Source: Alphaproteobacteria bacterium (GTDB lineage: Bacteria > Pseudomonadota > Alphaproteobacteria > JACZXZ01). Taken from it: a stretch of 64,000 nucleotides of DNA. Shown here piece by piece: positions 8,796 to 49,547 of the stretch. The DNA lies in assembly GCA_035294245.1 (NCBI GenBank), contig DATGLG010000068.1, positions 146,766-210,765 on the forward strand. The letters are read 5' to 3'. Numbering within the stretch: position 1 is the stretch's first letter; each line of letters opens with the position of its first letter. The notes below the pieces were generated by a model. It did no database searches. It was not told the DNA's origin and saw nothing but the letters and a program-made list of their open reading frames with translations. The position numbers and the translations under genes are program-made.

Positions 8796-8802
8796 GACAC
8801 CG

Positions 8803-27679: not shown

Positions 27680-27719
27680 GACCCCACCGCCCGAGAACAA
27701 CATCGAAGGGAGGAACACC

Positions 27720-28916: not shown

Positions 28917-28942
28917 CGCGACGATGAGAGGAATGCCGGGCG

Positions 28943-30049
<1,107 letters not shown>

Positions 30050-30054
30050 GAAGA

Positions 30055-30921
30055 ATGATGACCGGCTCGCGCGAGACAGGCCTCGATCGCTCGGTGCTTC
30101 TGGTCGTGCCCGGCGTTCTCGTCGTGCTGCTGCTTTTCATCTATCCCTTCATTTACGGGCTTATCCTCTCCTTCGAGCCCAAGGCCGGGAGCATCTGGGC
30201 GAACTACGCCCGGTTTTTCTCCGAGCCGCGATTCAAGGACACCCTCGGCATCACCTTCTGGATCGCGGTGCCGGCGACCCTGATCAATCTTGGCCTCGCC
30301 ATTCCCATGGCGTTCAAGCTCCGCCGAGCAACACGATTGCAGCGCTTCGTCACCACGCTCCTGGTGATCCCGATCACGCTCGGGACCGTGCTGGTGGCCG
30401 AGGGGCTTCTCAATTATCTCGGGCCGCAGGGCTGGCTCAACCGCGTGCTCGTCGATCTCCATCTCGTACTGACGCCGGTGCGCCTGACCCATAATTACTG
30501 GGGCGTCCTGCTCTCATTGGTGATTACCGGATTTCCCTTCGCCTTTTTGCTGACGCTCTCCTACATCACCGGTATCGATCCGGTGCTGGCGCAGGCGGCC
30601 TCGACCCTCGGCGCCGGCCCCAGCCGCCAATTCCTCCATATCTACCTGCCGCTCCTGGCGCCGGGCCTCGCCATCACCTTCTGCCTCGCCTTCGTGCAGG
30701 CCTTCTCGGTGTTTCCTTCTGCCGTGCTCCTGGGCGCACCCGCCGGCCCCACCCGGGTCATCTCGATCGCCGCCTACCAGGCCGCCTTTGAGGATTACGA
30801 CTATGCCATGGCCTCGGCCGTCGCCATGATCATGGGCGCGGCGCAGCTCGTCATCGTCGTCGCCGTACTGGGGCTGCGCAACGTCTTCTATCGCGGCCCC
30901 GCCGCCGGAGCCAAGGGATGA
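30055..30921 (+). CDS. ABC transporter permease (PotB-like)
   Basis: ATG 30055 (MMTGSRETGL...), 6 TM. It is the coding C-terminal part of ORF 29146..30921. Confidence 0.8.
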   Translation: MMTGSRETGLDRSVLLVVPGVLVVLLLFIYPFIYGLILSFEPKAGSIWANYARFFSEPRFKDTLGITFWIAVPATLINLGLAIPMAFKLRRATRLQRFVTTLLVIPITLGTVLVAEGLLNYLGPQGWLNRVLVDLHLVLTPVRLTHNYWGVLLSLVITGFPFAFLLTLSYITGIDPVLAQAASTLGAGPSRQFLHIYLPLLAPGLAITFCLAFVQAFSVFPSAVLLGAPAGPTRVISIAAYQAAFEDYDYAMASAVAMIMGAAQLVIVVAVLGLRNVFYRGPAAGAKG

Positions 30922-31817
30922 GCGCCGCCGGCCTCGCCGCTCGTGCCGCCGATCCCGGCCTCGCCGGCGGGACCGGCGTCGTGCGCAAATCCTGGCGCGA
31001 GATCCTGTGGACGAGCTTCGTTTGGGCATTGATGGCCTTTTTCCTCATCAACGTCGCCGGCGTCATCGCCTCGGTCGCGGTCAACTCCTTCGGCACGCGC
31101 TGGTTCGCGACCTGGCTCCCCGCCGGCTTCACGACGCGCTGGTATTTCACTGCCTGGGACGATTTCCAGCTTTACGACGTGCTGGTCGTCACCTTCGAGG
31201 TCGTCTTCGCCGTCGTGATCATCTCGGTCGTCGTTGGCGTTCCCGCAGCCTACGCCCTGGCGCGGCGGGATTTCATCGGCAAGCGCGCGGTTCTCCTGCT
31301 CTTCGTCATTCCCCTCCTCGTCCCGCCCATCACCTATGGCATCCCGCTTGCGACGGTGCTTTATCAAAGCGGCGTGGGCGGAACCCTGGCCGGGGTCATC
31401 CTCGCCAATCTGGTGCCGTCGGTCCCCTTCGTCGTCCTCGTCATGACCCCCTTCATCGAGCAGGTGGATCCGAGGCTCGAGGCGGCGGCGCGTGTCTTCG
31501 GCGCCGGGCTCGGCCGCATGTTCGTCCATGTCCTCGTGCCGCTGCTGGCGCCGGGCATTCTGGCGGCGGCGCTGCTCGTCCTCGTGCGCACCATCGCCAT
31601 GTTCGAGCTCTCCTTCCTGACTGCGGGACCGGACAGCCAGACCCTCGTCGTCGTGCTCTATTATTCGGTGTTCGCCGCCGGAGTGCGGGCCGGGCAATCG
31701 ATCGACGCCATGGCGGTCATCTATATGGTGACCACTCTCGTCTGGCTCCTCGTCGCGCTTCGCTTCGTCAATCCGACCCAGCTCGTTACGCGCGTGAAGG
31801 AGCAGCGGCGAGCGTAG
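30918..31817 (+). CDS. ABC transporter permease (PotC-like)
   Basis: 299 aa multi-TM. Start overlaps the previous stop (ATGA). Confidence 0.8.
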   Translation: MSAAGLAARAADPGLAGGTGVVRKSWREILWTSFVWALMAFFLINVAGVIASVAVNSFGTRWFATWLPAGFTTRWYFTAWDDFQLYDVLVVTFEVVFAVVIISVVVGVPAAYALARRDFIGKRAVLLLFVIPLLVPPITYGIPLATVLYQSGVGGTLAGVILANLVPSVPFVVLVMTPFIEQVDPRLEAAARVFGAGLGRMFVHVLVPLLAPGILAAALLVLVRTIAMFELSFLTAGPDSQTLVVVLYYSVFAAGVRAGQSIDAMAVIYMVTTLVWLLVALRFVNPTQLVTRVKEQRRA

Positions 31818-31868
31818 CGGCCGATATCGGCGGCTCGATGCCCGCGCGCCGCCGCAGAGGAGTAGATC

Positions 31869-33077
31869 GTGAAGATCAAGGAAGCCCGCGTCATCATTAC
31901 CTGCCCCGGGCGGAATTTCGTCACCCTCAAGATCGTGACGGATGATGGGCTCCATGGGCTCGGCGATGCGACCTTGAACGGGCGCGAGCTCGCCGTCGCC
32001 GCCTATCTGAGCGAGCACGTGGTTCCTTGTCTCATCGGTCGCGACGCCGATCGGATCGAGGACATCTGGCAATATCTCTATCGCGGGGCTTACTGGCGGC
32101 GCGGGCCGGTGACGATGTCCGCCATCGCCGCCGTGGATACGGCGCTTTGGGACATCAAGGCCAAGGCCGCCAACATGCCCCTCTATCAGCTTCTCGGCGG
32201 CCGCAGCCGCGACGGCGTCATGGTCTATGGCCACGCCAATGGCACCGACATCGAGGCGTGCGTCGATGAGGTCGCGCGCTATATCGCGCTCGGCTATAAG
32301 GCCATCCGCGCGCAATGCGGGATTCCCGGCTTGGCCTCGACCTATGGCGTGGCGCGCAACAAGATGTATTACGAGCCGGCCGACGCGGCCCTGCCGACCG
32401 AGAACCTGTGGTCGACGGAGAAATACCTCGATTTCGTTCCGAGCCTGTTCGAGAGGCTGCGCGTGAAGTTCGGCGCGGAGCCGCATCTGCTCCATGACGC
32501 GCATCATCGGCTGAAGCCCATCGAGGCGGCGCGGCTCGGGAAGGCGCTCGAGCCCTACCGGCTCTTCTGGCTCGAGGACGTTACCCCCGCCGAGAACCAG
32601 GAAAGCTTCCGGCTGATCCGCCAGCACACCACCACTCCCCTCGCCGTCGGCGAGGTGTTCAACTCGATCCACGACTGCCGCGCGCTGATCGGCGAGCAGC
32701 TCATCGATTACATCCGGGCGACGGTCGTTCATGCCGGCGGGATCAGCCATATGCGCCGCATCGCGGCACTGGCCGAGCTCTACAATGTGCGGACGGGCAG
32801 CCACGGCGCCACCGATCTCTCGCCGGTCTGCATGGGCGCGGCACTGCATTTCGACATCTGGGTGCCGAATTTCGGCATCCAGGAATATATGCGGCATACC
32901 GAGGCGACGGATGCGGTCTTCCCCCATGCCTATTCCTTCAAGGACGGCTATCTCTTTCCCGGCGAGGCGCCTGGGCACGGGGTCGATATCGACGAGAAGC
33001 TCGCCGCGAGATTTCCGTATCGGCGGGCCTATCTGCCTGTCAATCGCCTCCTCGACGGCACCATGCATGATTGGTAG
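31869..33077 (+). CDS. manD: D-mannonate dehydratase of the enolase superfamily (ManD)
   Basis: GTG start. [47 protein letters not shown]... is the characteristic ManD N-terminus, with the enolase-superfamily barrel following. Confidence 0.85.
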
Positions 33078-33090
33078 GAGCGGAGCCAGA

Positions 33091-34335
33091 ATGGTGGAGA
33101 TTCCGCGAACGATCGAGGAATGGCGCGCCTGGCTTGGCGACACGGTGCTGCCCTATTGGGTGGTGGTGGTGGCGGTGGCGTCCGAGCCCGCGGGTTATGT
33201 CGAGTATCTGACGCGCGACGGCGTGCGGGACGCGCGAGCTGAGAAGACGCCCCTCGTCACCGCCCGTCTGATTTATGTTTTCAGCCATGCCCATGTGCTT
33301 GGGCTCGGTCGCGATGTGCTCAAGGCTGCGGAGCACGGCTTCCGCTTTCTCGTCGAGCGCTGCTGGGATGCGCGTGACGGCGGATTCTTCCACAAGGTCG
33401 CCGCGGACGGCACACCCATCGATCGGCGCAAGGATGCCTACGATCACGCCTTCGCGCTCTTCGCCATGGCTTGGCTCCATCGCGCGACCAGGAGACGGGA
33501 GCCGCTCGATTGGGCCGCGCGAATCATCGCCTATATGGACGAAGCGCTCACCGATCCCACCGGCGGCTATCGCGAGCATATCGGGACCGGCGACCCGCAG
33601 CCGCTGCCGCGACGGCAAAATCCCCATATGCACCTGCTCGAGGCGTTTCACGCGCTCTTCGAGGCGACCGGCGATGAGGCTTGGCTTACGCTCGCAAGTG
33701 CAATCATCGATCTTTTCGAGCGGCATTTCTTCGATCGGGAGACGGGCAGTCTCGGCGAGTTCTTCACGGCCGATTGGCAACCGGCGCCCGGCGCCCTCGG
33801 GGTGTTGCGCGAGCCGGGACACCATTTCGAATGGGTTTGGCTGCTCCACCACCACGCGCGCCTCACAGGATCGGATGCCAGCTTGGTGGCCGCCGATCGC
33901 CTCTACCATTTCGCCCTTCGTCATGGCCTCGACAAGCGACCCGGCCGGATTCCCGCCGCGTTCGACGAGATCGACCGCATGGGCCGCCTGGTTACGGAGA
34001 GCAAGCTGCTGTGGCCTCAGACCGAGGCGGTCAAGGCCTTTCTCGCGCGCTGGGAATTTCTCGAGGACCGGGACGCCGCGCGGCGAGTCCTCGATCATAC
34101 AGTCCTGCTCTTCCGCTGGTTTCTCGTCGACGAGACGGCGCGCTGGCGAAACCGCCTCGCCGCCGACGGCCGCGAGATACCGGGCGAGCTGCCGGTGCGC
34201 GTCCTCTATCACCTCTTTCTCGGTCTCGCCGAGCTGGTTCGCCTGTGGCCGACGCTTCCGGCCGAAGAGCTGCGGCGGCTCGGTTCTTCGATCCGCGGGA
34301 GTAGCGCAGCCACGGCCTCGATGCTCCCGACATAG
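33091..34335 (+). CDS. N-acylglucosamine 2-epimerase (AGE) superfamily epimerase/isomerase
   Basis: ATG 33091 (MVEIPRTIEEW...), 414 aa, (alpha/alpha)6-barrel family motifs (...HMHLLEAF..., ...GHHFEWVWLL...). Coding part of ORF 32731..34335. Confidence 0.65.
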   Translation: MVEIPRTIEEWRAWLGDTVLPYWVVVVAVASEPAGYVEYLTRDGVRDARAEKTPLVTARLIYVFSHAHVLGLGRDVLKAAEHGFRFLVERCWDARDGGFFHKVAADGTPIDRRKDAYDHAFALFAMAWLHRATRRREPLDWAARIIAYMDEALTDPTGGYREHIGTGDPQPLPRRQNPHMHLLEAFHALFEATGDEAWLTLASAIIDLFERHFFDRETGSLGEFFTADWQPAPGALGVLREPGHHFEWVWLLHHHARLTGSDASLVAADRLYHFALRHGLDKRPGRIPAAFDEIDRMGRLVTESKLLWPQTEAVKAFLARWEFLEDRDAARRVLDHTVLLFRWFLVDETARWRNRLAADGREIPGELPVRVLYHLFLGLAELVRLWPTLPAEELRRLGSSIRGSSAATASMLPT

Positions 34336-34356
34336 AGCGAGGAAACAGGAGCGGCG

Positions 34357-35112
34357 ATGCCCATCCAACCCGTCGAGACCCAGCGATTGTACCAGCAGGC
34401 GGCCGACCAGATCCGCAGCCTGGTCCGGCGGGGCGAATATGCGCCGGGGGATCGTCTTCCCTCCGAGCGCGAGCTCGCGAAACGGCTCGGCGTCAGCCGC
34501 CCGACCGTACGCGAGGCGATGATCGCGCTGGAGATCGCCGGAATCATCGATATCCGCGCCGGCGCCGGCATCTTCGTTTCCGATCAGGCGACGCGCGATG
34601 TCCAGGCTTTGCTGCCGGCCCTCGATGCGGGCCCGAGCCCCTTCGATCTGCTCGCCGCGCGCCGGCTCCTCGAATGTGAGATCGCCGCCCAGGCGGCCGA
34701 GCAGGCGACCATCCGCGATCTGGCCGCGATCAAGGAAAGCATCGTGGAAATGGAGCGCGATATGGCCCGAGGCGGCTCGGGCCAGCGCGAGGACCGCCAA
34801 TTCCATGGCCTGATCGCCGGCGCAACCCGTAACAGCGTCTTCGTCTCACTCGTCGACGGCTTGTGGGAAGGCATGTCGGCGCCCCTCTTCCACAGCCTCA
34901 GCGCGCATACCCATCTTCCCGATCACAAGCAGATGACGATCGCCGATCACCGGGCGATCTATGAAGGACTGCGCAAGCGGGACGGTGCCGGCGCCCGAGC
35001 AGCGATGGCCGCGCACCTCGCCCATGTCGAGGCCGTCCTCACCGGCGCCGACGATCTCGCCATCCATCCCGAGCATGCCCCGGCGCGGCCACGGCGCCGC
35101 GACCAGAAATGA
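34357..35112 (+). CDS. GntR-family (FadR subfamily, FCD domain) transcriptional regulator, UxuR/ExuR-like by context
   Basis: N-terminal wHTH (GDRLPSERELAKRLGVSRPTVREAMIALE) plus a C-terminal FCD domain. Last gene of the hexuronate locus. Confidence 0.8.
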   Translation: MPIQPVETQRLYQQAADQIRSLVRRGEYAPGDRLPSERELAKRLGVSRPTVREAMIALEIAGIIDIRAGAGIFVSDQATRDVQALLPALDAGPSPFDLLAARRLLECEIAAQAAEQATIRDLAAIKESIVEMERDMARGGSGQREDRQFHGLIAGATRNSVFVSLVDGLWEGMSAPLFHSLSAHTHLPDHKQMTIADHRAIYEGLRKRDGAGARAAMAAHLAHVEAVLTGADDLAIHPEHAPARPRRRDQK

Positions 35113-36144: not shown

Positions 36145-36627
36145 ATGATGCGCTGCCGGTGCTCGTGGCCGTTCCGCCGTCTCCATCGTGATGATTCCAC
36201 CGTCATGGACATGGTATGGGATGCGCGCCCGCTTCGGCGAAGGAGCGCAGCCGCAGCCAAGCGATATGCTTGCGCGAGGCGCGTCGCCGCGTCGTCCCTC
36301 GTCGCGCTTGCTCTTGCATCTTGCATGAGTATTACAGCGCCAGATCCACGGCGAGCGCCGCCGAGTGCCGCCCTTCCACGCACGATCGGGCCCGACGATG
36401 TCGCCGCCTGCAGCGCGGAGCTCTACGCCTATGTCAGCGTTGGGGCCCTCGCGGAGCAGCTGGGTCCGGATGCCGATGTCTTCGATGCCGCGCTCAACGA
36501 CCTGCACGACCAGTTGCAGGACTGCCTCACGGCGCCGGCCGGTGATCTCTTGGACGTGAAATGGACCCCGCGGGCTGATCGGCAGCGGCTTTGGTCGCCG
36601 AAGGACGGCGTCGTCAATTATCGTTGA
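36145..36627 (+). CDS. Hypothetical protein, probable lipoprotein (LALASC lipobox)
   Basis: ORF preceded by an unusually AT-rich segment (36100-36140). Start is uncertain (36145 or 36205). No recognisable domain. Confidence 0.35.
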   Translation: MMRCRCSWPFRRLHRDDSTVMDMVWDARPLRRRSAAAAKRYACARRVAASSLVALALASCMSITAPDPRRAPPSAALPRTIGPDDVAACSAELYAYVSVGALAEQLGPDADVFDAALNDLHDQLQDCLTAPAGDLLDVKWTPRADRQRLWSPKDGVVNYR

Positions 36628-36660
36628 GCGCGTTGTCCGCGAACGATAACCGTCGTCGCA

Positions 36661-37143
36661 TCAGGCACCGCTCAGGAATGCCGCGACCTCGGGGTGGGAT
36701 TTGAGCTCTCGCAGGTCCTCATTGGACGGCAATTGAGGTTTATCCCTCATCGCATTGACCATGCAGAGAAATCCAAGAGGCTCGCCGGCCGTCGCGCGGA
36801 ACTGGTGCCAGGTCCATGCGGGAATCGTGATGAGATCGTAAGTCCCCACGTTCTGAACCGTGTCGCCGATCAGGCAGTGGCCGCGGCCGCGGAAGATCAT
36901 GACCGCGTGCGTATGCTCGTGGCGCTCCAGAGAGGAGTAGCCGCCGGCCTCCATCTCGAAATAGCGCAGCTCGCAACCGAAGTCGGCGCCCGCGAACAAC
37001 ACCTGCCGCGAAATGGCCTTGAACGGCGCGCTGCCCTCCTCCTTGTAGGGGAGGCGATCCGTCGCCTCCCACCGGTAATTCTGGAAGCGACGCAGACGCG
37101 CGGCTGCTGGCGCGGCCGCATCCATCGGCTTGCCCTTATGCAT
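36661..37143 (-). CDS. Cupin-domain protein
   Basis: 160 aa with cupin motifs (…LERHEHTHAVMIFRGRGH… / …TIPAWTWHQF…). Overlaps the RLP gene by 8 nt. Confidence 0.65.
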   Translation of the reverse strand: MHKGKPMDAAAPAAARLRRFQNYRWEATDRLPYKEEGSAPFKAISRQVLFAGADFGCELRYFEMEAGGYSSLERHEHTHAVMIFRGRGHCLIGDTVQNVGTYDLITIPAWTWHQFRATAGEPLGFLCMVNAMRDKPQLPSNEDLRELKSHPEVAAFLSGA

Positions 37144-38242
37144 GTGCCCTCATCACGGCAGCCCCTTGGGCGACGCGGGCCACGAAGGCCGCTGTTTCCG
37201 CTGTCAGGCGCTCGCACGCAGCGAGCAGCCCTCCGCCGATCAGCAACATTACATCGGCACCATAGAAGTCAAGCATCTCCGGCACCCGCGCGACGGTCAT
37301 GCCCCCCGCCGGCACCGGCACGCATGCGCGCTTGTCGGCCCAGGGCTCGACGGCCGCCAGCGCCAATCTCCGGCAGGTTTCCGGCGTATAGCCGAAGCGG
37401 CCCCCATGATTGGGGAAGATCGTGGCGTCGGCTCCCAGCAAACGAAAGAGCTTGCCGAGTAGAAGCGGCGGCGCCAGGCGCGCCGCGCCCGCCATCGCCG
37501 GATGGGCCATGAACGCCATGCCCGGATATTCGCGCACCAGCGCATCGAAAGCGGGAAGGCCCACGATCATGGGCGCGATGAGGACCGTATCGACCCCGGC
37601 CTCCCGCGCTATCGCCATCTGCGCACGCAGCCGGTCCAGGTTGCCCGACAGGCTCGGGACGTAGCGGGTGGCATGCCCGGTCGCGCGATTGGCCTCGCGC
37701 ACGGCAGCGGCGCAGGCGTGCACCCGCTCGGCGAAGGGGCTGTAGGCCTGGTCGGCCAGGCCGTGATCATCCTTGATGTAATCGAGCCCGCCGCGGGCGA
37801 GCCGGCCGGCCAACTCTGCCAGCGCTGCGGGCGGCAGACCCTGGGGCTTCAAGGCCGAGCAAGTCATGGCGCGTCCTTCGGCACCGACCCGTTGACGCAA
37901 ACCGGTGAGGCCATGGCAGGGGCCACCGAAGGCCGCAAGCAGCTCCACAGAGAAGACGACATCGGCGAGCGTCACATCGTCGTGGATCGAGGTGTTGCCG
38001 AACAGCATGTTCATGAGCTGCCCGGCCTCGAGCCCCGTGGTCGCAGTGGCGATGCCGATGCGGACTTCGAACAGTCCCGCTGCAATCTCCTCGATACCCT
38101 CGACACGGCCGATGATTTCTGCGAGCACGAAGCGATCCTCGATCGCCGCGACGGGCATTTCGACGCTTTGCTCGACCGCGATGGCGCGGGCGCGCGCCTC
38201 AATCGATCCCGCCTCGCTGCGAACCCGATAGATCGCCGTCAT
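37136..38242 (-). CDS. RuBisCO large-subunit-like protein (form IV RLP)
   Basis: Preferred start 38240-38242 (MTAIYRVRS...), 368 aa. The RuBisCO loop motif G-L-D-Y-I-K-D-D-H aligns to GxDFxKDDE, with E replaced by H. TIM-barrel C-terminal domain. ORF 37136..38560 has an Arg-rich, non-coding-looking in-frame leader. Confidence 0.75.
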   Translation of the reverse strand: MTAIYRVRSEAGSIEARARAIAVEQSVEMPVAAIEDRFVLAEIIGRVEGIEEIAAGLFEVRIGIATATTGLEAGQLMNMLFGNTSIHDDVTLADVVFSVELLAAFGGPCHGLTGLRQRVGAEGRAMTCSALKPQGLPPAALAELAGRLARGGLDYIKDDHGLADQAYSPFAERVHACAAAVREANRATGHATRYVPSLSGNLDRLRAQMAIAREAGVDTVLIAPMIVGLPAFDALVREYPGMAFMAHPAMAGAARLAPPLLLGKLFRLLGADATIFPNHGGRFGYTPETCRRLALAAVEPWADKRACVPVPAGGMTVARVPEMLDFYGADVMLLIGGGLLAACERLTAETAAFVARVAQGAAVMRAHA

Positions 38243-38267
38243 GCGCGAGGTCACGGCCTCTTCTCCC

Positions 38268-39287
38268 TCACGCCTGAGGCGCGCCTGCGCCGGCCGCGGA
38301 TTTCCTCGGGCGCGCAAAATACGGGGCGAGATTGGCGCGGATGCGCTCGAGCACCGGAACCCGCGGGTCGGGAAGCGGAAACGCCTCGCCGGTAATCCGC
38401 TCGAACACGCTGACGTAGATGCGGGCGGCTTCGAGGATGATCTCGCGCGGGATCTCCGGGATCGGGTCCCGGTAGGGATCGCAACGGGCGACGACCCAGC
38501 TGCGCACAAAGTCCTTGTCGAAGCTCTCCGGCTTCTCGCCGGCGGCGAACCGGCGCCCATAGCTCGCGGCGAACCAATAGCGGCTGCTGTCGGGCGTATG
38601 GACCTCGTCGGCGAGGATGATGCGGCCGACGTCGTCGAAGCCGAACTCGTATTTGGTATCGACGAGGATGAGGCCGTGGCGTTCCGCGATCTCGCGGCCG
38701 CGCGCGAAGAGCGCCAACGCCAGATCGCACGCGGTCCGCCATTGCGCCGCCGTGAGCAATCGGCGGCCGATGATGTCCTCCGCCGTCAGCGGCTCGTCAT
38801 GCCCGCCATCGGCCGCCTTCGTCGTCGGCGTGATGATGGTGGCCGGAAGCTTCTGGTTCTCGCGCATGCTGTCGGGGAAGCGGACGCCGTACATCTCGCG
38901 CCGGCCCGCCTTGTACATGCTCCAGATCGAGGTGGCGGTGGTCCCCGCCAGGTAGTCGCGCACGACGACTTCTACGGGGAAGATGCTCAGCCGCCGGCAC
39001 ACGACGACGTTGGGATCGGGGTACTCGATGACGTGGTTGGGGCAGACGTCCTGCGTCGCCTCGAACCAGAAGCGGGCGATTTGCGTCAGCACTTGTCCCT
39101 TGAGGGGGATCGCGGTGAGGATGCGATCGAAGGCGCTCAGCCGGTCGCTCGCGATAAGAATGCGCCGCCCGTCCGGAAGGTCGTAATTATGCCGCACCTT
39201 GCCGCGATAGTGGCCGGGAAGCTCGGGAATGGTGGCGTCCCAAAGCGCCTGGTCGGCATAACGCGCGAGATCGGCCGTTGCGAGCAT
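38268..39287 (-). CDS. SAICAR-synthetase (PurC) family ATP-grasp-like ligase, long form
   Basis: 339 aa. Contains DRLSAFD, …QIARFWFE…, [11 protein letters not shown] and [12 protein letters not shown], which are the classical PurC motifs. About 30-aa C-terminal extension. 25 nt upstream of the RLP. Confidence 0.75.
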
Positions 39288-39385
39288 CGGATCGTCCGGT
39301 CGTCAGCAATCCTCCCTGGTAGCTTTACATCGGGTGAGCGCCGATGGCCAGAGCGAGCATTTTGGCTCGGATGAGCCGGTGGAGG

Positions 39386-40195
39386 CTAAGCGTGAGGTTT
39401 CTCCTCGACCTGGGGCGCAGACGCCGCGGGCCGCATCGCCGCGGTGCTCACATACCAGAAGGTCTCGCCCTTGCGCTGGTGGCGCGTCGCCTCGAGGCCG
39501 CGAGATTGCAGGGATGACACCGTCGCGGACTCCGTCGAGTAGATACGCCATCCGGAATCCGCGGGCGGGCTCGCCTGGGCATGCCGCGATTCTTGCAGGG
39601 CGGCAAGGAGGCGCGAGCTCTCGGGACGATGAATGACGAAGCCCTCGCCCGTCGGGGCGGCGACATCGATCTCCAGCAAGCGGCAAAGGTGGCGCTTGCG
39701 CGGCGCGTCCTCCCGATCGGCCCGGCGAAAGGCTTCGACGAGCGCCCGGGTTTCTCCATCGGTGATATCGCCTGCCGAGGAGGGCGATGCCGCGGCTCGC
39801 CAGGCCTCCGGCGGGCAACTCTTGGCGCGCGCATCGAAAACCATGAACGGGTTGATCTCCGCCGGATAGATGCGGCAAACCCGCGGCCTCCGCTCATAAA
39901 TCCGGCAGCGCAGATCGTCACCCAGGTTCCGGCAGTTGCCGGAGACCATGCCGATCAACACAACGGTCACGCGGATCGGCGAGCCGCCGCAGGTCGCGGC
40001 AAAGGAGCGGCCCTTGGTGTAGGCGGCGCGGCGATCCTGCGCATCCGGCTCCGTCGACCAATCGGCGGCTTCGCAAAGAACACAGACCTCGCCGCCATCC
40101 TCGATCCAGGCGATCGCCTCGTCGATGCAAAGCGGAAGATTGTGGTCGCGGCAGCATTTGCCGCACATCGTGCACGAGAAATTCACGTCGCCCAT
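39386..40195 (-). CDS. YkgJ/UPF0153-family cysteine-cluster protein (putative Zn/Fe-chelating CxxCGxCC domain) with a ~120-aa C-terminal extension
   Basis: N-terminus MGDVNFSCTMCGKCCRDHNLPL…CRIYERRPRVCRIYP matches the YkgJ Cys pattern. Confidence 0.6.
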   Translation of the reverse strand: MGDVNFSCTMCGKCCRDHNLPLCIDEAIAWIEDGGEVCVLCEAADWSTEPDAQDRRAAYTKGRSFAATCGGSPIRVTVVLIGMVSGNCRNLGDDLRCRIYERRPRVCRIYPAEINPFMVFDARAKSCPPEAWRAAASPSSAGDITDGETRALVEAFRRADREDAPRKRHLCRLLEIDVAAPTGEGFVIHRPESSRLLAALQESRHAQASPPADSGWRIYSTESATVSSLQSRGLEATRHQRKGETFWYVSTAAMRPAASAPQVEEKPHA

Positions 40196-40366
40196 CGAGT
40201 CGCCACGCGCGCAGCGTTATTTCACTGCTGCGTGGTTAACAACTCGTTCACGATAAAAATTCCCCCCTTCCGCCCGTTGGCATGTATTCGGCGGGTTCCG
40301 GCACCGCGGCGACATGGTCGTCGAGGAGGCGCTCCGCCCAGCGCGACGAAGCGCCCCTTCGGCATG

Positions 40367-41668
40367 CTAGGCACGGACGGCGACGGCCTCTGCCCCCGAA
40401 CTCTGGCCGACCCAGCGAACGCGAATGGGCTTGAGGACGAACAGGGCCAGGAGTGCGGTCAGGGCGTCGAGGGCGACGACGATGATGAACACGGAGGTCC
40501 AATTCCCCGCAACGACGCGCAGATAGGCCGCGAGGGGACCGCCCAGGATCGAGCCGACGCCTTGGGCGATATAGAGGAACCCGTAATTCGTGGTAGCGTA
40601 TTTCGGGCCGAAGAGATCCGTGAGAGTCGATGGGAAGAGCGAGAAGATCTCGCCCCAGCCGAAGAAGACCAGCCCGGTGAGCACGACGAAGATCGCGGGA
40701 TTGCTGGCGAAGACCAGCAGCATCAGGATTGCCGCCGCCTCCAGCGCGAAGGCGATGAACATAGTGTTCTCCCGCCCGATGTGATCCGAGACCCAGCCGA
40801 AGAACGGCCGCGTCAGGCCATTGGTCGCCCGCGACAGGGTGAGCGAGAGGGGAAGCGCCGCCAGCCCGAGCACGAGCGCTGTGCTCACGCCGAAATCCTT
40901 CGCGAAGGGGCCGACCTGCGAGGTCACCATCAAGCCGCTCGTCGACATCATCGACATCATGACGAAGAGCAGCCAGAAGACCGGGGAGCGGAGCATCTCG
41001 CCCGGCGTGTAGCTGCGCCGGGATTGGCGGTCGACCTGCTTGTGGGCGACCGAATGGGGTGGGGTGGCGGGGCTCCAGCCGCTCGCCGGAACGCGCAGCC
41101 ATTGCGCGACGATGATGCCGATGATCCCCTGGATGAATCCCCACACCAAGAGTGTCTTCTCGAGCCCCGAGCTCGGCAGCATGCTCGAGATGGGAAAGGT
41201 GGTGAGGATGGCGCCAGCGCCATAGCCCGCGGCCGCCAGTCCGGCGGCGAAGCCGCGGCGATCGGGGAACCATTTCACCATCAGGCCGATGATCCCCACA
41301 TAGACGATCCCGGTGCCGAAGCCGCCGATGACCCCATAGGTAATATAGAGCGCCCAAATGCTCGTCACATGAGACGAGAGTATCCAGCCGGCCGCGGACA
41401 TCGTCGTCCCCACGGTGATGAGGAGACGCGGGCCGAAGCGATCGACGAGATAGGCTTGAAGCGGCGAGAGAAAGGTCTGAAGCACGATAAGAAGCGAGAA
41501 CGTCACCTGGATCGCCGCCAGGCCGGCCCCGAGCTTCTGGCCGAAGGGCTGGACGAAAAGGGTCCAGACATATTGCGGACTGGAAATGACCATCATCGAA
41601 AGGAAGCCTAGCCCGAGCTGGCTCCAGCGATTCCAATACCATCCGCGGTGTTGAGGTGCTGCGGACAT
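40367..41668 (-). CDS. MFS transporter, oxalate:formate antiporter (OFA) family
   Basis: 433 aa, 12 TM. OxlT-like N-terminus (MSAAPQHRGWYWNRWSQLGLGFLSMMVISSPQYVWTLF...). Confidence 0.8.
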   Translation of the reverse strand: MSAAPQHRGWYWNRWSQLGLGFLSMMVISSPQYVWTLFVQPFGQKLGAGLAAIQVTFSLLIVLQTFLSPLQAYLVDRFGPRLLITVGTTMSAAGWILSSHVTSIWALYITYGVIGGFGTGIVYVGIIGLMVKWFPDRRGFAAGLAAAGYGAGAILTTFPISSMLPSSGLEKTLLVWGFIQGIIGIIVAQWLRVPASGWSPATPPHSVAHKQVDRQSRRSYTPGEMLRSPVFWLLFVMMSMMSTSGLMVTSQVGPFAKDFGVSTALVLGLAALPLSLTLSRATNGLTRPFFGWVSDHIGRENTMFIAFALEAAAILMLLVFASNPAIFVVLTGLVFFGWGEIFSLFPSTLTDLFGPKYATTNYGFLYIAQGVGSILGGPLAAYLRVVAGNWTSVFIIVVALDALTALLALFVLKPIRVRWVGQSSGAEAVAVRA

Positions 41669-41707
41669 CGACCGGCTCTCCCCTGTTGTGGATTTGGACG
41701 CTTACCC

Positions 41708-41729
41708 GCTGGTATAGAATATACCGGAG
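41708..41729. promoter_or_regulatory. GntR/FadR-type operator-like palindrome upstream of the MFS-YkgJ-PurC-like-RLP-cupin operon
   Basis: gcTGGTATAgaaTATACCGGag read directly. Inverted repeat TGGTATA/TATACCG, about 50 nt upstream of the MFS start codon. Resembles TGGTA...TACCA GntR-family boxes. Confidence 0.35.
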
Positions 41730-41893
41730 CAGCCGCGCGCGATACGGCGCCCGAGCGGCTGCGCCAAGCCGGGCCATCCGCTGCGCGTGACGCAGTAATG
41801 CCGTTACAGCCACACCTTTATCACAGAGGATGGATTTTGCCCCCGCGACGCCGCCCCCTATTCTTCAAATAAGAGAAACAAAAGGCAGAGAAT

Positions 41894-42613
41894 ATGGATT
41901 ATATTAAGCAATTCGATTACTCCATCATACACTTCCTGAACCAGTTCGCCCGAAAAAGCCCGGCGTTCGATACTTTCGTTTTCGACGTCGCCGATTCCGA
42001 CCTGCTCAAGGGCGGCATCTTCATGGCCTATTTCTGGTGGCTCTGGTTCAAGAGCTACGAGGCGCCGGTGCGGCGCCGGGCCGTCGTCGTCTTCGTCCTC
42101 GGCGGCATCGCGGCGGCGATCATCTCGCGGATTCTCCAGATCGCCCTTCCCTATCATGGCCGCCCCTTGCACACGGCCGATCTCGGCTTCGTGGTGCCGA
42201 TCGGCGTCAATCCCGCCACGCTCAGCTTCTGGAACTCGTTCCCGAGCGACCACGCCGTCCTCTTCTTCGCCCTATCGATGGCGGTCTGGTATTACTCGCG
42301 CCGCCTCGGGGTCGTGGCGATGATCTGGACGTTCTTCGTCATATGCGTGCCACGGGTCTATCTCGGCTACCATTTCCCCAGCGACGTCATCGTCGGCGCC
42401 GTTCTCGGCGTGCTCATCATGATGGCCGCTCACCGGCTGTTCACCAATTCCGGCTTCGTCGAGGGAATCGTCGATCTGGAAAGGACGCACAGGGCGATCT
42501 TCTACTGCCTCGCCTTCCTGCTCACTTACGAGCTCGCCATCCTGTTCTACGATCTGCGCGTGCTCGCCGTGGACAGCATCCACATCATCAAGGCGATCGT
42601 GAAGGCTGCATGA
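41894..42613 (+). CDS. PAP2-family phosphatase (acid phosphatase / lipid phosphate phosphatase superfamily)
   Basis: Conserved PAP2 motifs SFPSDH and YLGYHFPSDVIVGAVLG, with a multi-TM topology. Confidence 0.75.
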   Translation: MDYIKQFDYSIIHFLNQFARKSPAFDTFVFDVADSDLLKGGIFMAYFWWLWFKSYEAPVRRRAVVVFVLGGIAAAIISRILQIALPYHGRPLHTADLGFVVPIGVNPATLSFWNSFPSDHAVLFFALSMAVWYYSRRLGVVAMIWTFFVICVPRVYLGYHFPSDVIVGAVLGVLIMMAAHRLFTNSGFVEGIVDLERTHRAIFYCLAFLLTYELAILFYDLRVLAVDSIHIIKAIVKAA

Positions 42614-42649: not shown

Positions 42650-43879
42650 TCACCCGGCCTTGGCGATCGGCTGAATAGGGAGATTCCCCACCGGGCGCGG
42701 CCGTCCCTCGAGGATGCGGCAGAGCTCCGTGACGTCGTCTCCGGACACGAAGGTTGCGATCGGCAGGCTGAGGAGACGCTGGCATTTCTCCTGATAGGCT
42801 GCCCGCGTCAGCGTTTCGAAGAAACGAACGATCGCCTCCTCGAGTAAACCGTCGAACGTCCACCCCACCCCGAGCCGTTCGATGAGCGCGCCGATCTCGA
42901 AGCCCTGCACGGCAAGACACGGCACGCCATGGAGGCCTGCCTCGTAGAACCGGCAAGGCAGCAGCCAGCGCGAATTGTGATCGGCGTGCTCGAGATCGAG
43001 GGCCCAGGCGAAATCGACTTGCCGATAGAGGGACGGCAGGTCGCGAGGCGCGAGATAAGGACCCTCATAGACCATGTTGCGGCTGCGCTTCAGGGCCGCG
43101 AAGAACTTCTCCTCGTCGACGGTCGTGAGGATGCCGCGGAACTTGAAGAGGACCCGATCCTGCAGTCGCGCGGCGACCCGCGTCATGAGATCGAACGTCG
43201 CCTCGCCGCGAATCAACCCGAAATAGCCGACCACCCATTGGTACGGCCCCCGCTCGTCGGCGCCATCCCCGCGCATTCGCCGCTCACCCGAGAGATGATT
43301 CAGCGCGGAGGGGTGAAGCTTGTTCTCGAGGAGGAACCACTCCCGCCGATAACCCTGAGTCGGCAGATAATAGTTGCGATGGAATCCCGGGGAGGACAGC
43401 ACGAGCAGGCGCACATGGCGCAGGCACCAGCGCTCGATCATCCGCAACAGGATTGATGCCGGCTTTCGACCGGTCAGGATCGGCGGTATGTCCAGAACCT
43501 CGTACGCCAAGGTGACCCGCCCGCAGGCCACCAGCCGCCCGATCAGCGCCAGGATGAGCTGGTCGATATTGCGTGCATAAAAGACGGAGGCGCGGCGAAG
43601 GCGGCGCCGATTTTTGATGACGATGGGGATCGCCTTCAGCAGCGCCCAGATGCGATGCCAATATCGACCGTCGGATGTCGCGCCGAGGGAGACATACGAC
43701 CAGGGCGGGTTGTAGTCGCGATTGTATCGCTGACGGCGGAAGCCGAAGACGGTGATGCGATAGCCGTAGTCGATGAAGTCCTGGACGCGCTTGATCGTGC
43801 TGCCATCAGTGAGATCGGGAGCGAAGAAGATGAGCCGTCGACCGTCCTTCTCAGCCCTGTCCGCCACGCTCCGCTCCAC
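42650..43879 (-). CDS. Glycosyltransferase (GT1/GT4-like)
   Basis: 409 aa with a GT-B fold C-terminal region (…FYEAGLHGVPCLAV…). First gene of the EPS locus. Confidence 0.65.
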   Translation of the reverse strand: MERSVADRAEKDGRRLIFFAPDLTDGSTIKRVQDFIDYGYRITVFGFRRQRYNRDYNPPWSYVSLGATSDGRYWHRIWALLKAIPIVIKNRRRLRRASVFYARNIDQLILALIGRLVACGRVTLAYEVLDIPPILTGRKPASILLRMIERWCLRHVRLLVLSSPGFHRNYYLPTQGYRREWFLLENKLHPSALNHLSGERRMRGDGADERGPYQWVVGYFGLIRGEATFDLMTRVAARLQDRVLFKFRGILTTVDEEKFFAALKRSRNMVYEGPYLAPRDLPSLYRQVDFAWALDLEHADHNSRWLLPCRFYEAGLHGVPCLAVQGFEIGALIERLGVGWTFDGLLEEAIVRFFETLTRAAYQEKCQRLLSLPIATFVSGDDVTELCRILEGRPRPVGNLPIQPIAKAG

Positions 43880-44171
43880 GGCTTCCCCTCAAGTCAAGCG
43901 CAGACCGCTCACTTCCCCCAACCGTCCGCAGATGTCGGCGAGAATGGCGTGATCGACGAATGCGGGCCGGGCTTCCGGGCGAGCATTATCCGTGAAGAGG
44001 AATAGCGCCCCTTGTGATCAATTTGTGGTTCGGCCGCGATCCTGAAAATTCCAGCATTTCCAACTTTTAACGCGCAATCCGCGAGGCCGGGACAGTCACA
44101 GGTTGATCACTGGCTCGACCAGGTCCCCCGATGTTCCATGTGGCTGCCTATGGCCCATATCGAAGCGGGGG

Positions 44172-45347
44172 ATGCGCGTGAGCGCGACCGTGGTCCAATC
44201 CGAGCCTCGACCGTCGACGCCGGCGCCCCAGGCGCCGCGCTTCGAGCGCGTGGCGGTGACGTCCGTGTTCGGCGATCCGCGGAGTCCCCGCACCTGGTCC
44301 GGCGCGCCCAGCAACGTCATCTCGGGGCTCGAGCGCCTGGGGATCAGCGTCGAAGGGATATGGCCGAAACTCACCCGTTGGCAGAAGCTGCGGTTGGCGG
44401 CGGGTCAAATTCTCGCCGGCTATGGCCGCCCGATCACCAGCGAGCAGATCATCCGCGGCCGCGGCGCGCGCGAAATTCGTGCGCGTCAGCTCGCGGCGGC
44501 CGTCGAGCGATTGGGCGTCCGCCACGTTTTGCACCTGGGAACCCTCGATCTGCCTGCCCTCGATCTCCTGCGCGGCGTCAAGCATTACCTTTATTGCGAC
44601 CAGACCTGGGCGCTGTCGATGCGCTATCGCCCCGATCGCAACAGCTACACGGCGAAGGCGGTCGAGGAATACGAGCGCCTGGAGCGTGATTCCCTGCGCG
44701 GCCTCGATCATGTCTTCACCTTCGGGGCCTATGTGCGCGACAACATCGTCGAGCATTACGGGGTCTCTCCGGAGCGGGTGACGACGGTGGGCTCCGGGAT
44801 GGGCAATGTCGAGCCCTATTTCGGCCCCAAGGAATACGGACAGGCAAAGCTGCTTTTCGTCGCCAAGCACCTTTTCAAGGCGAAGGGCGGCGCCCTCCTA
44901 GTCGACGCCTTCCTTCGCGCCCATCGCCGCCGCCCCGACTTGACGCTGACAATCGTCGGCGACGAAAGGAGCCGCCACTTCGTGCCCTCCCACACGGGCA
45001 TCGTCTTCCGCGCGCACCTGCCTTGGCTGGAGCTGCAGCAGCTCTATCGCACCGCCAGCCTGCTGACGCAGCCGATGCTGAACGATCCCTGGGGCCAGGT
45101 CTACCTGGAGGCGCTGGTGTCGCGCACGCCGGTCCTGGGACTCAATCGCAATGGCCTGCCCGAGATCACCGAAGGCGGGCGTCACGGCTTTCTCGTGGAC
45201 GAGGCCGATCCTCAGGCCTTGGCGGACGCCATCCTCGCGGCGGTCGAGAATCCCCGCCGGCTGGCGGAGATGGGAATGAGCGGCCAGCGCCACGCCCTCA
45301 ACACCTATTCATGGAATCGCGTGGCGGAGCGAATCGCCTACCGGTGA
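44172..45347 (+). CDS. Glycosyltransferase family 4
   Basis: ORF 44103..45347. ATG 44172 (MRVSATVVQ...) preferred, after a GGGGG RBS. GT4 C-terminal motifs (…EGGRHGFLVDEADPQALADAI…). Confidence 0.65.
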   Translation: MRVSATVVQSEPRPSTPAPQAPRFERVAVTSVFGDPRSPRTWSGAPSNVISGLERLGISVEGIWPKLTRWQKLRLAAGQILAGYGRPITSEQIIRGRGAREIRARQLAAAVERLGVRHVLHLGTLDLPALDLLRGVKHYLYCDQTWALSMRYRPDRNSYTAKAVEEYERLERDSLRGLDHVFTFGAYVRDNIVEHYGVSPERVTTVGSGMGNVEPYFGPKEYGQAKLLFVAKHLFKAKGGALLVDAFLRAHRRRPDLTLTIVGDERSRHFVPSHTGIVFRAHLPWLELQQLYRTASLLTQPMLNDPWGQVYLEALVSRTPVLGLNRNGLPEITEGGRHGFLVDEADPQALADAILAAVENPRRLAEMGMSGQRHALNTYSWNRVAERIAYR

Positions 45348-45437
45348 GTACGGGCGGGTTGCCGTCTCGATATCGCTCGGCGTGAGTGCCGATCAACGGA
45401 AATCGGCAAAATCCATCGGATCAACGATGAAAGGGAC

Positions 45438-46532
45438 ATGAGCATGTCGGATAAAGTTGCTCTGATAACGGGCGTGACGGGTCAGGACGGCGCGTATTTG
45501 GCCGCGTTCCTGCTTCAGCGGGGATATATCGTCCATGGTGTCAAGAGGCGCTCCTCCTCCCTCAACACGGCTCGGGTCGATCATCTCTATCTCGACAGGC
45601 ACGAGAAGAACCTGCGGTTCTTCCTGCATTACGGCGATATGACCGATTCGACGGGGCTGATTCGCCTGATCGACGAGGTACGTCCGACCGAGATCTACAA
45701 CCTCGCCGCCCAGAGCCATGTCCAGGTCAGCTTCGAGACGCCGGAATACACGGCCAATACCGACGCCCTCGGGACCTTGCGGGTGCTCGAGGCGATCCGA
45801 ATTTTGAAGATGCAGGACCACGTGCGCTTCTACCAGGCGTCCACCTCGGAGCTTTTCGGCAAGGTGCTGGAGACGCCACAGCGCGAGATTACGCCCTTCT
45901 ACCCGCGCAGCCCCTATGCAGCGGCGAAGCTCTATGCCTATTGGATCACCGTGAACTATCGCGAGGCTTACGGCATCCATGCCTCGAACGGGATCCTGTT
46001 CAATCACGAATCCCCCACCCGCGGCGAGACGTTTGTCACGCGCAAAATCACGCGGGCCGTCGCGGCCATTGAGCACCGGATGCAGGATCGGCTCTATCTT
46101 GGCAACATCGACGCCAAGCGCGACTGGGGCCACGCCCGCGACTACGTGGAGGGCATGTGGCTCATCCTGCAGCAGGACGAGCCGGACGACTACGTGCTGG
46201 CGACCGGAGAGACGCACTCGGTGCGCGAATTCGTCGAGCTGGCGTTTCGGTGCATCAATCGCCCGATCGTGTGGGAAGGCAAGGGCGCGAGCGAGAAGGG
46301 CTTTTGCACGAGAACGGGGGAGATCCTCGTCGCGATCGATCCGGCCTATTACCGGCCGACCGAGGTCGATCTCCTGCTCGGCAGCCCGGAGAAGGCACGC
46401 AAGAAGCTCGGGTGGCGACACAAGACGAGCTTCGAGCAGCTCGTCGCGGAGATGGTCGAAGCCGATCGCGCCGCCTTGCTGCAGACCCACGTCGACTTCA
46501 CCCAAGAGAGGCGCCTGCGCGCCGCGCAATGA
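45438..46532 (+). CDS. gmd: GDP-mannose 4,6-dehydratase
   Basis: [19 protein letters not shown]… with [10 protein letters not shown] and the Gmd-specific …[19 protein letters not shown]…[11 protein letters not shown]…. Confidence 0.9.
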
Positions 46533-46653
46533 TGCGGCGTCCGGCGCGCTATCGGGCGGCCGCTACGAGCGCGGGCGGCCGCCCCCGCCCGCCCCTCCTT
46601 GGGAAATCGCGGCTATTCGCCCGGATCCTTCCGTGTAGCTACAACCCAGATAG

Positions 46654-47877
46654 CTACAACGCCGCGATCGCGGCGATGAGCTGCTTGCCGCGGCTCGACC
46701 AGTCGAACTTGTCGCGGCACTCGGCATAGGCGTGGTCTTGCAGACTGTTGAGGAGCTTGAGGTCGTCCATCACGTTGAGCACACCCTGGGCGAGCGCCGC
46801 GTGATCGGGATAAAGGAGAATGCTGCGGTCCTGCCGAAGCGGGACACCGGCGACTGATCCGTCGAGCGCCAGGATCGGCAATCGGTTGAAGACATATTCG
46901 AGGACCTTAAGCTTGAACCCGCCCCCGTTGCGCTCCGGAACGATGGCGATGCGCGCCGCGTCCATGTAGTCGGTTACATCGCCGACCGTTCCCGTGAACA
47001 CGGTGGCCGTCACCTTCTTGCGCAGTTGATTGAGGAAGGACTCCTCGGCGCTCCCGATCACCTGAAGCTCCGCCCGATGAGAGGCGAATACCGGATCGGC
47101 AACGCTGACGAACTCCTCGAGATTCATGCGCTTGGCGACCCAGTCGAAGCTCCCGACGATGACGGCGCGACGAGGAAAATCGGTCGTGATCCTGCGGCCG
47201 GCCACGTGGCGCCCCTGATAGCCGGGCGTCAGGATATCGATCCGCTTGTCCGGTCGGCGGGCCTTGTAGAGGGAGCCGTCCTCGGGGGTGATGGCCGTCA
47301 CGAGATCGACCGCGTCCACCAGGCGCCGCTCGAGCAGACGGACCTTCAGCGCATCTAGCCACATCGCCTGCCGCTTCAGCGGCTGCTCCTGGTTGCTCGC
47401 GATCTGGGCCCGTATGCTCTCCTCGTGGTTATGGGAGATATAGACGAGCTTCGGCCTCCGTCGCTTGTTGGAATAATGCTGCAACACCGGCCGCATGGCC
47501 CAGCCGACGGAAATGCCGTCGAAGACGATGCAGTCCCAGCCATCCTGCCGGAGCAGGTCGCCGAGCAGCCTCTGCATGTCCGCGGTCTGGCATCGATGGG
47601 CGATATGGGGAAGGCACGAGGCTAGGCTTGCCCAGCGAGAGAGCGGCTGATGATCGGCCAGCCACCACCGCACATTGCCGTCGACCGCGTGCGTTCGATT
47701 CGATTCCGGCCGGCTTAGCCCGAGCACATCGACGAGGGCGCCCGCATTCGCGAGCGCCTCGATCAAGCCGCCCGAGTAGATGAACTGGCCGTTATGCCGC
47801 GGCTCCGGATCGGCAAGGGTTAGCCATAGACAGCGCATTTGTCGCACTGATCTAGCAGTGGGCCCATCAATAGGCAT
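46654..47877 (-). CDS. Glycosyltransferase family 1/4
   Basis: 407 aa. GT-B C-terminal domain (…AIVPERNGGGFKLKVLEY…). Confidence 0.65.
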   Translation of the reverse strand: MPIDGPTARSVRQMRCLWLTLADPEPRHNGQFIYSGGLIEALANAGALVDVLGLSRPESNRTHAVDGNVRWWLADHQPLSRWASLASCLPHIAHRCQTADMQRLLGDLLRQDGWDCIVFDGISVGWAMRPVLQHYSNKRRRPKLVYISHNHEESIRAQIASNQEQPLKRQAMWLDALKVRLLERRLVDAVDLVTAITPEDGSLYKARRPDKRIDILTPGYQGRHVAGRRITTDFPRRAVIVGSFDWVAKRMNLEEFVSVADPVFASHRAELQVIGSAEESFLNQLRKKVTATVFTGTVGDVTDYMDAARIAIVPERNGGGFKLKVLEYVFNRLPILALDGSVAGVPLRQDRSILLYPDHAALAQGVLNVMDDLKLLNSLQDHAYAECRDKFDWSSRGKQLIAAIAAL

Positions 47878-49378
47878 AACGGCCGGTGAAGCCGCCGAGA
47901 ACCGTCCGGGCGATGATGCGGAGGTCTAAGAGGATCGACCAATGCTCGATGTAATAGAGGTCATGCTCCACTCGCTTCTGAATCTGCTCGATGGTCTGGG
48001 TCTCGCCTCGCCAGCCGTTCACCTGCGCCCAGCCCGTGATCCCCGGCTTCATGCGATGCCGGGCGTCGTAGTACCGGACCGCGTCCTGGTAGAGCAGACC
48101 GCCCGCCTTGGCGGCGAGCGCATGCGGCCGTGGGCCCACGATGGACATCTCGCCACGCAGGACATTGATGAATTGCGGCAGCTCGTCGAGGCTGGTCTTG
48201 CGCAGGAAGGCACCGATCCTCGTCACGCGCGGATCGTTCCGGCGCGTGAGCTGCTCGGCATTATCGTCCCGCGCATGATGATACATGGTGCGGAACTTGA
48301 AGATCTCGATGAGCTCGTTATTGAGCCCATAACGCTTCTGCTTGAAGAAGACCGGCCCGCGGCTGCTCAGCTTGATGAGAGCGGCGATGGCGAGCATCAT
48401 GGGCGAGATCAAGGCGAGGATGAGTGCCGCCAGCAGCCGATCCTCGATCTCCTTCGCGACCCATTTCCAATCATGGAGCGGGTTGTCGGCGATAGTGAGG
48501 AAGCTGAGCCCCCCCATATGGCTGATCCCGCAGGTGGAGAGCTGAAACCCGAACTGGTCGGGGCAGAGGCGCACGTCGACGGGAAGCACCGTAAGCTTGT
48601 TAAGGATTTCCGTGAGGCGCCAATCGGCCGACAGCGGCAGCGCGACGATTACCGTATCAATCCGGTGTGAGCGCGCGTCGCTTACCAGATCGTCGACGTT
48701 TCCCAGGATCGGATGTCCCATGCAACGCGGCGGAAGCCGGCTCAGCCGGTCATCATAAACGCCGAGGATCTTGAGGTCGGGATCCGATTTGACATTGAGC
48801 TGCCGCAGGAGCCGCTGCCCAATCGCGCCGGCGCCGACGACCGCGACGACCTTGCCAAGGCTTCCTTTCGTCCGAGCGTGGCGGATAAAAAGAAGCACGG
48901 CGACTCGGATTCCCCAGAGGAGCAGGACTCCGCCGGCGAACCAGGCCACCAGCCATCGCCGCTCCGACGGACCGAATATTCCCGCGCCGAGGCTGATCGC
49001 CGCCAGGATGGCGGTGACGGCAAGGCAGGCCCCCGCCGACCTGCAGAACGAGGCGCCGGGAGCGCTCAAGGTCCCGAAGCGGTAGGCGCCGGCCCAATAG
49101 AGCAAATTGACGAGCAGAACGGCGCCCAGCAGGCCGGCCACAGCCATGACCCGCCACGCATCGCCTACTTGGCCCGCTATCCAAATGGTCGACGCCGTTG
49201 CCACGGCCACCATGCCCAAGCCGTCGGCGATGCCGACCAGGCCGCTCACAATTGCGCCGGACACCTGTCTCGGAGCTTCGGCGAAGATGCGTGGCTTCGC
49301 CGGTCGCCGATGTCTTTCCGCCGCTCGCCCTCCCTCGACGGCGCGTAGCAAGGGTTTCGATGCAGCCTGGCTTTTCAT
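47867..49378 (-). CDS. Polyprenyl-phosphate hexose-1-phosphate transferase (WbaP/ExoY-like initiating sugar transferase)
   Basis: Preferred start 49376-49378 (MKSQAAS...). N-terminal TM segments, a central Rossmann-like segment ([11 protein letters not shown]) and a C-terminal bacterial sugar-transferase domain (…KFRTMY…[22 protein letters not shown]…). The ORF track starts at 49543. Confidence 0.8.
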
Positions 49379-49547
49379 CGCATGATCCCGAACTCTCGGC
49401 ATGTCGTGGGAATCCACGGCCATGGCCCCTGCAGGCTTCGGCGCGCAGCGGCCTGGCAGGTTCGGGTTTGCCATATCGGGGCGGGCTTGGTCTTGTGACC
49501 AAGTTGGGGCAGCGACGGTTGCAGGAATCACTCCCGGGATCAATCCG

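Follow-up and report, generated by a model that had tools for sequence, protein, structure and literature searches.

The locus described here raises the question of whether a purC-like gene, embedded in a run of non-purine genes, encodes an ordinary SAICAR synthetase or a ligase that has been recruited to the chemistry of its neighbors. The gene lies in a 64,000-nt (64-kb) stretch of alphaproteobacterial DNA, referred to here as the window, within a compact run of five genes on one strand, in the order MFS, YkgJ, PurC, RLP (RuBisCO-like protein), cupin:

40367-41668, minus strand: oxalate/formate-antiporter-family MFS transporter (OxlT-like), 433 aa; TIGR04259, 448.6 bits against a cutoff of 335; Pfam MFS_1
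39386-40195, minus strand: YkgJ-family CxxCxxCC cysteine-cluster protein, 269 aa; PF03692, E 3.7e-9; named YkgJ family cysteine cluster protein by NCBI
38268-39287, minus strand: long-type SAICAR synthetase (PurC, NF009251/PRK12607 type), 339 aa; Pfam and NCBIfam matches
37136-38242, minus strand: RLP of the DeepYkr type, 368 aa; PDB 3QFW, E 1.2e-126
36661-37143, minus strand: cupin, 160 aa; Pfam Cupin_2

The MFS gene heads the run and is separated by 171 nt from the YkgJ-family gene. The initial annotation placed purC between a YkgJ protein and an RLP, and the coordinates agree, with the YkgJ-family gene 98 nt upstream of purC and the RLP gene starting 25 nt past the purC stop codon. At 269 aa, the YkgJ-family protein is unusually long for a cysteine-cluster protein of its kind. 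The same annotation set purC apart from purS and purQ, which was borne out by tblastn: purS, purQ, and a second purC were all absent from the 64-kb window. A Pfam scan of the 20 ORFs between 24.6 and 50.8 kb likewise returned no pur families, so the window PurC lacks an association with purine genes.

On one side of the run, a hexuronate/sugar-acid catabolism cluster occupies 24648-35112 on the plus strand and encodes a UxaC isomerase, a mannitol-dehydrogenase-family oxidoreductase, an ABC transporter (SBP, ATPase, and permease), an MR/MLE-superfamily dehydratase, an N-acylglucosamine-2-epimerase-family protein, and a GntR/FCD regulator. On the other side, a PAP2 phosphatase (41894-42613) is followed by an exopolysaccharide-type cluster (42650-50774) with several GT4 glycosyltransferases, a GDP-mannose 4,6-dehydratase, a Bac_transf priming sugar transferase, and a 409-aa protein at 42650-43879 that has no Pfam match.

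The three hallmark PurC motifs quoted in the initial annotation, which gave no strand, were all located in the 339-aa minus-strand ORF: DRLSAFD at residues 48-54, KYEFG at 212-216, and a 12-residue third motif at 227-238. This ORF begins with ATG and has a GC3 of 0.86 in a window of 66% GC. Its match to Pfam SAICAR_synt (PF01259) is far beyond chance (E 1.6e-67). Among the NCBIfam models, NF009251 (PRK12607), a curated equivalog model of 315 positions for long-type PurC, scored 474 bits against a cutoff of 371, with residues 13-325 aligned to model positions 6-314. The cutoff of NF010568 was only just passed, and the score against TIGR00081, the short-type model, fell below the cutoff (159.8 versus 189.9). 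The best solved relatives, all of them SAICAR synthetases, are the long-type enzymes yeast Ade1 (E 7.6e-47) and mycobacterial PurC, each about 300 aa in length. An "Alphaproteobacteria bacterium" MAG encodes an identical protein, NCBI HLI14213.1; the closest named relatives are Stellaceae, and the window comes from a contig of soil-metagenome origin (JGI Ga0070737_10000470). This kind of feature is already known, and public records annotate the window PurC identically.

Compared with the long-type enzymes of solved structure (yeast Ade1, 1A48/2CNQ; Mycobacterium abscessus PurC, 6YVQ), the window PurC shares a full-length match, the catalytic and ligand residues, the C-terminal helical extension, and the insertions relative to E. 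coli PurC that follow the VVR..AG loop and precede the DKD motif. Its differences are a tail of about 14 residues and a gene that precedes an RLP–cupin pair instead of standing by itself or next to pur genes. The short PurC (TIGR00081; E. coli 2GQS) has the same Pfam domain and ligand-contact residues and presumably catalyzes the same reaction, but it is only 25-27% identical, about 85-100 residues shorter, and in Alphaproteobacteria typically encoded in purC-purS-purQ clusters, whereas the window gene is unlinked to purS and purQ. The C-terminal extension, put at about 30 extra residues in the initial annotation, is only partly peculiar to this protein. The yeast Ade1 alignment stops near residue 302, and the roughly 22 residues that follow are a conserved trait of this PurC subfamily, since NF009251 aligns as far as residue 325 and close homologues are nearly all 324 aa. 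Only the last ~14 residues, a low-complexity tail absent from homologues, are unique. Nor is the long form itself unusual, belonging as it does to a family that is large and curated.

The active site was compared with that of E. coli PurC, whose ligand contacts, as reported by Ginder et al. and quoted in PMC3261824, include K11, K13, Q69, R94, S100, D175, E179, R199, and R215. The contacts so quoted align with K30, R32, H85, R110, T116, D210, E214, R236, and R262 of the window PurC. Three further positions that we take to be conserved in the E. coli enzyme, D36, D191, and K211, align with D54, D227, and K258. The E. coli sequence used was 100% identical to E. coli records, and the comparison covered the ATP/Mg and CAIR contacts. 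Nine of the 12 mapped positions are identical, and the remainder carry family-typical substitutions: K13 to R and S100 to T are conservative, and Q69 to H is also seen in the alphaproteobacterial short form. Across 78 long-form sequences the mapped positions are near-invariant, with the exception of that equivalent to S100 (T, S, or V). As judged from this alignment, the active site offers no hint of a substrate change, and the contacts to the CAIR phosphate and ribose, to Mg, and to ATP appear to be kept.

The two genes downstream of purC resemble a characterized system. In Rhodospirillum rubrum, the DeepYkr RLP Rru_A1998 and the cupin Rru_A2000 constitute the MTA-isoprenoid shunt, in which methylthioribulose-1-phosphate is converted to methylthioxylulose-5-phosphate and then to DXP and methanethiol; the RLP–cupin organization also occurs in R. 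palustris and other relatives, and the published pathway requires no ligase (PMC4958253). The window RLP aligns with the R. palustris RLP structure (3QFW) over residues 2-359, and JGI gives a 78%-identical homologue the name S-methyl-5-thioribulose 1-phosphate isomerase. We predict that the window RLP is a 5-methylthioribulose-1-phosphate isomerase and that the cupin is its partner, of the 1-methylthioxylulose-5-phosphate sulfurylase type. With an R. rubrum/R. palustris-type RLP, a cupin directly downstream in the same order, and the same tight linkage, the pair is likely an MTA-isoprenoid-shunt module of an uncultured soil alphaproteobacterium, its activities being those suggested by homology and synteny. 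The adjoining PurC is no component of the published pathway.

We examined the association of PurC with this module from both sides. On the PurC side, a genome scan gave 80 loci with PurC homologues 45-77% identical to that of the window, spanning Rhodospirillales-type MAGs, Acetobacteraceae, Azospirillum, Rhizobiales, Rhodobacterales, and Sphingomonas as well as CPR phyla, Chloroflexi, Legionella, and Sorangium; three plasmid or chromid loci brought the sample to 83. Homologues of the window RLP, cupin, YkgJ-family protein, and MFS transporter were found by tblastn within about 8 kb of purC at none of the 83. Seven further close homologues (76-79% identical), at eight loci, were again set in differing contexts, without an RLP at any of the eight. 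In all, a homologue of the window RLP, cupin, YkgJ-family protein, or MFS transporter was present at 0 of 91 PurC-homologue loci (45-81% identical). For one 79%-identical homologue (P0004), a gene begins 25 nt downstream, a spacing like that in the window, and it does not encode an RLP.

The RLP side gave the same answer. We sampled 80 metagenome loci whose RLPs share 60-71% identity with that of the window, and in 52 of them the sequence extended beyond 1.3 kb upstream; homologues of PurC, the YkgJ-family protein, and the MFS transporter were found at none of the 80, while in 72 the RLP gene was immediately followed by that of a cupin homologue. RLP–cupin is a self-contained two-gene module that has landed in many contexts. 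A PurC-like gene thus does not recur in this module from either direction (0/80 RLP loci, 0/91 PurC loci), and the PurC–RLP adjacency is confined to contigs that carry this same 339-aa protein. The YkgJ-family protein is a conserved neighbor of neither purC nor RLP by tblastn across the 83 PurC and 80 RLP loci. Separately, the commonest upstream neighbor of the RLP was a NUDIX hydrolase, on the same strand at gaps of 19-206 nt in 13 of the 66 loci with an upstream ORF (L093, L098, L107-L109, L112, L127, L129, L140, L144, L153, L154, and L162); it may be an unrecognized accessory gene of the RLP–cupin module.

The relatives of the window PurC also speak to its history. Identity declines with taxonomic distance, from 70-77% in Rhodospirillales-type sequences through 63-69% in Rhizobiales to 58-64% in Rhodobacterales, which points to a vertically inherited, constrained gene. 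The commonest Pfam families among immediate neighbors of the PurC homologues were PurE (8), PfkB kinase (7), PurM (5), PurQ-type amidotransferase (4), and PurB (3). The pur-gene neighbors are confined to distant (45-56% identical), non-alphaproteobacterial members of the long form. Within the Alphaproteobacteria, long-form purC is essentially solitary, with variable neighbors.

Several of these neighborhoods merit description. Seven loci of the Rhodobacterales/Paracoccaceae type (L045, L047, L050, L053, L057, L058, and L060; around positions 8001-10000) have a PfkB-family kinase gene directly after long-form purC. In five loci, comprising four of these seven and L061, purC is preceded by a conserved zinc-ribbon membrane protein of ~380 aa with no Pfam family, and zinc-ribbon protein, purC, and PfkB kinase form a conserved three-gene arrangement in this group. 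Two close relatives (77-79% identical) carry purC within or beside cobalamin genes (L172, 3447-12588; L169, 6001-12978), in the order CobT, CobS, CobC-type phosphatase, PurC, CobU, CobW, CobN in L172; this link is lineage-specific, being absent from the window and from the other 83 PurC-homologue loci. In Stellaceae-type relatives, the gene directly upstream of purC encodes a small, repetitive Gly/Tyr/Trp/Pro-rich protein (for example, GGWGGGGHGGG) with a hydrophobic N-terminus and no Pfam match (L009, 7454-7945; L017, 7386-7976; L048, 7413-7976). We compared the window YkgJ-like protein and cupin with the upstream PurC neighbors of relatives, namely the Rhodobacterales zinc-ribbon protein, the cupin of one Stellaceae MAG, and the Gly/Tyr/Trp-rich small proteins, and found no similarity (best blastp E 0.29-0.9). 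In two Sinorhizobium fredii records (NZ_CP029452.1 and NZ_CP023071.1), a 47-residue N-terminal long-form PurC fragment, 66% identical, is all that is detectable, which suggests a decayed remnant of long-form purC on the chromid.

Proximity in the window nonetheless leaves room for shared expression. The 25-nt gap between purC and the RLP gene (38243-38267) holds a ribosome-binding site, GGGAGAAGAGG, and the cupin start overlaps the RLP stop by 8 nt; on this spacing, purC is probably co-expressed with the RLP and cupin genes. The pair would then probably be read through from the purC promoter, a relationship that amounts to a shared transcript at most, and some regulatory coupling of purC with the shunt genes may exist in this lineage. 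A scan for promoters and terminators across the cluster returned nothing above shuffled expectation, so the limits of the operon are not fixed by it. We also considered a riboswitch or other RNA element that would tie purC to SAM or purine control; Rfam gave no match at gathering thresholds in the whole window, and the best matches within 36400-42100 were at chance level (E 0.16-0.82).

Given these results, we consider the window gene very probably an ordinary long-type SAICAR synthetase whose place ahead of RLP–cupin is incidental and which would take no part in the chemistry of that module. SAICAR synthetase converts CAIR, L-aspartate, and ATP to SAICAR, ADP, and Pi. As a member of the long subfamily (EC 6.3.2.6), with the architecture of yeast Ade1 and of the mycobacterial and Bacteroidetes enzymes, the window PurC would activate the CAIR carboxylate as an acyl-phosphate with ATP and Mg, and attack by L-aspartate would yield SAICAR. 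The MTA-isoprenoid-shunt module would have come to lie directly downstream through a lineage-specific accident of gene order. The initial annotation had offered two readings of the locus, a genuine purC simply hitch-hiking and a ligase for a different carboxylate within the operon. The absence of conserved linkage from either side, together with the equivalog score and the kept contacts, favors the former, and the same observations weigh against the latter. Moreover, an adjacency restricted to one lineage, beside a known shunt module, calls for no new chemistry.

The case for recruitment merits a fuller hearing, as the five same-strand genes, their short gaps, and the lack of a predicted terminator or promoter between them are what a dedicated pathway would look like. 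Acting with the YkgJ, RLP, and cupin proteins, a PurC-like enzyme would join a carboxylate outside purine synthesis, for instance a sugar-phosphate acid, to aspartate or some other amine. There is also a precedent, in that PurC-like proteins of the same fold family have been proposed to add aspartate in forming beta-RFSA-P during methanopterin biosynthesis (PMC3261824). We regard such a recruitment as extremely improbable. Orthologues whose genes have unrelated neighbors share 76-81% identity with the window PurC, in which every contact to CAIR phosphate, ribose, Mg, and ATP is kept, so a change of substrate would have to leave no visible trace in the sequence. The RLP–cupin pathway is, furthermore, complete as published without a ligase (PMC4958253), and the adjacency is found with this one protein. 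The methanopterin parallel fares no better: a Pfam scan of the 20 ORFs of 24.6-50.8 kb detected no methanopterin or beta-RFAP gene families, and the CAIR contacts are conserved. A divergent, 286-aa PurC-like gene on the Aminobacter sp. plasmid pANY103c (L167, 5010-5870) adjoins purH and lies 2.2 kb from a gene of the beta-ribofuranosylaminobenzene-5'-phosphate-synthase family, making its product a candidate for the proposed aspartate-adding step. Over 56% of its length, the window PurC shares only 28% identity with this variant, and it falls clearly within the NF009251 group.

Whether the gene is the first or the second purC of its genome is a separate matter. Long-form and short-form genes coexist on one replicon in Shinella sp. 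PSBB067 (4.6-Mb record; long form 66% identical, with a short purC-purS-purQ) and in Pseudorhodobacter turbinis (1.58-Mb record; long form 63% identical, with a short purC-purS), and a canonical purC-purS(-purQ) was also found in a Sphingomonas and a Paracoccus. In several alphaproteobacterial orders, then, the second copy is the long form. By analogy with Shinella and Pseudorhodobacter, the label "paralog" given in the initial annotation is plausible, and the window purC is most likely a second copy beside a canonical short purC-purS-purQ elsewhere in the genome. It could instead be the sole, housekeeping purC, with the same chemistry and the same incidental placement, only the copy number being different. 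The 64-kb window does lack any other purC, purS, or purQ, and the long form seems to be the only PurC of some other bacteria: in Prevotella NC_022111.1 (1.77 Mb), the window PurC and E. coli PurC each match a single place, at overlapping coordinates, which fits a sole long-form PurC. Azospirillum chromids showed no short purC among the matches listed, an absence that is uninformative because the main chromosomes lie outside the collections searched. A short-form profile built from four orders was run against the protein database to look for a short purC in Rhodospirillales or Stellaceae relatives; the best 120 hits with an organism name were almost all from Rhodobacterales, plus one Sphingomonas, which makes the search uninformative on that point. 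We consider a sole copy rather unlikely, as both forms are present on the alphaproteobacterial replicons open to full examination (Shinella and Pseudorhodobacter), the short one in its canonical cluster, and the Sphingomonas and Paracoccus clusters point the same way.

The coexistence of two forms in turn invites the idea that the whole alphaproteobacterial long-form clade, a "PurC2", has a conserved non-SAICAR function or a condition-specific role unrelated to the RLP genes. A distinct function would explain retention alongside a canonical purC, and it would accord with the sharing of single replicons in two orders, the strong conservation of the long form across orders (58-77% identity), its lack of pur-gene neighbors in Alphaproteobacteria, and its recurrent but differing contexts, including the PfkB kinase in seven Rhodobacterales-type loci and the cobalamin genes in two close relatives. 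We nevertheless judge it improbable. The window PurC passes the curated equivalog model with its ligand-contact residues conserved, its 45-56%-identical relatives lie beside purE, purM, purQ, or purB as expected of working PurC enzymes, and no alternative context is conserved clade-wide. Two types of PurC have long been kept in different alphaproteobacterial orders, a hint that they differ in some way functionally. That the long PurC is non-redundant, through a distinct substrate or regulatory role, and is here transcriptionally wired to SAM/MTA recycling strikes us as highly improbable. If true, such wiring would couple SAICAR/AICAR supply to the adenine-releasing salvage of methylthioadenosine. 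Literature searches on RLP with SAICAR, purC2, alphaproteobacterial purC paralogs, and Rhizobium purC auxotrophs found nothing relevant.

Together, these findings favor an ordinary SAICAR synthetase and leave a modest question, that of why a short PurC and a long one are both maintained in many Alphaproteobacteria. An ordinary purC has come to lie beside a known MTA-shunt module in one lineage, and neither PurC nor RLP should be used to reinterpret the other. More broadly, the locus serves as a caution for operon-based prediction of function, as a tight same-strand run can mimic a novel pathway.
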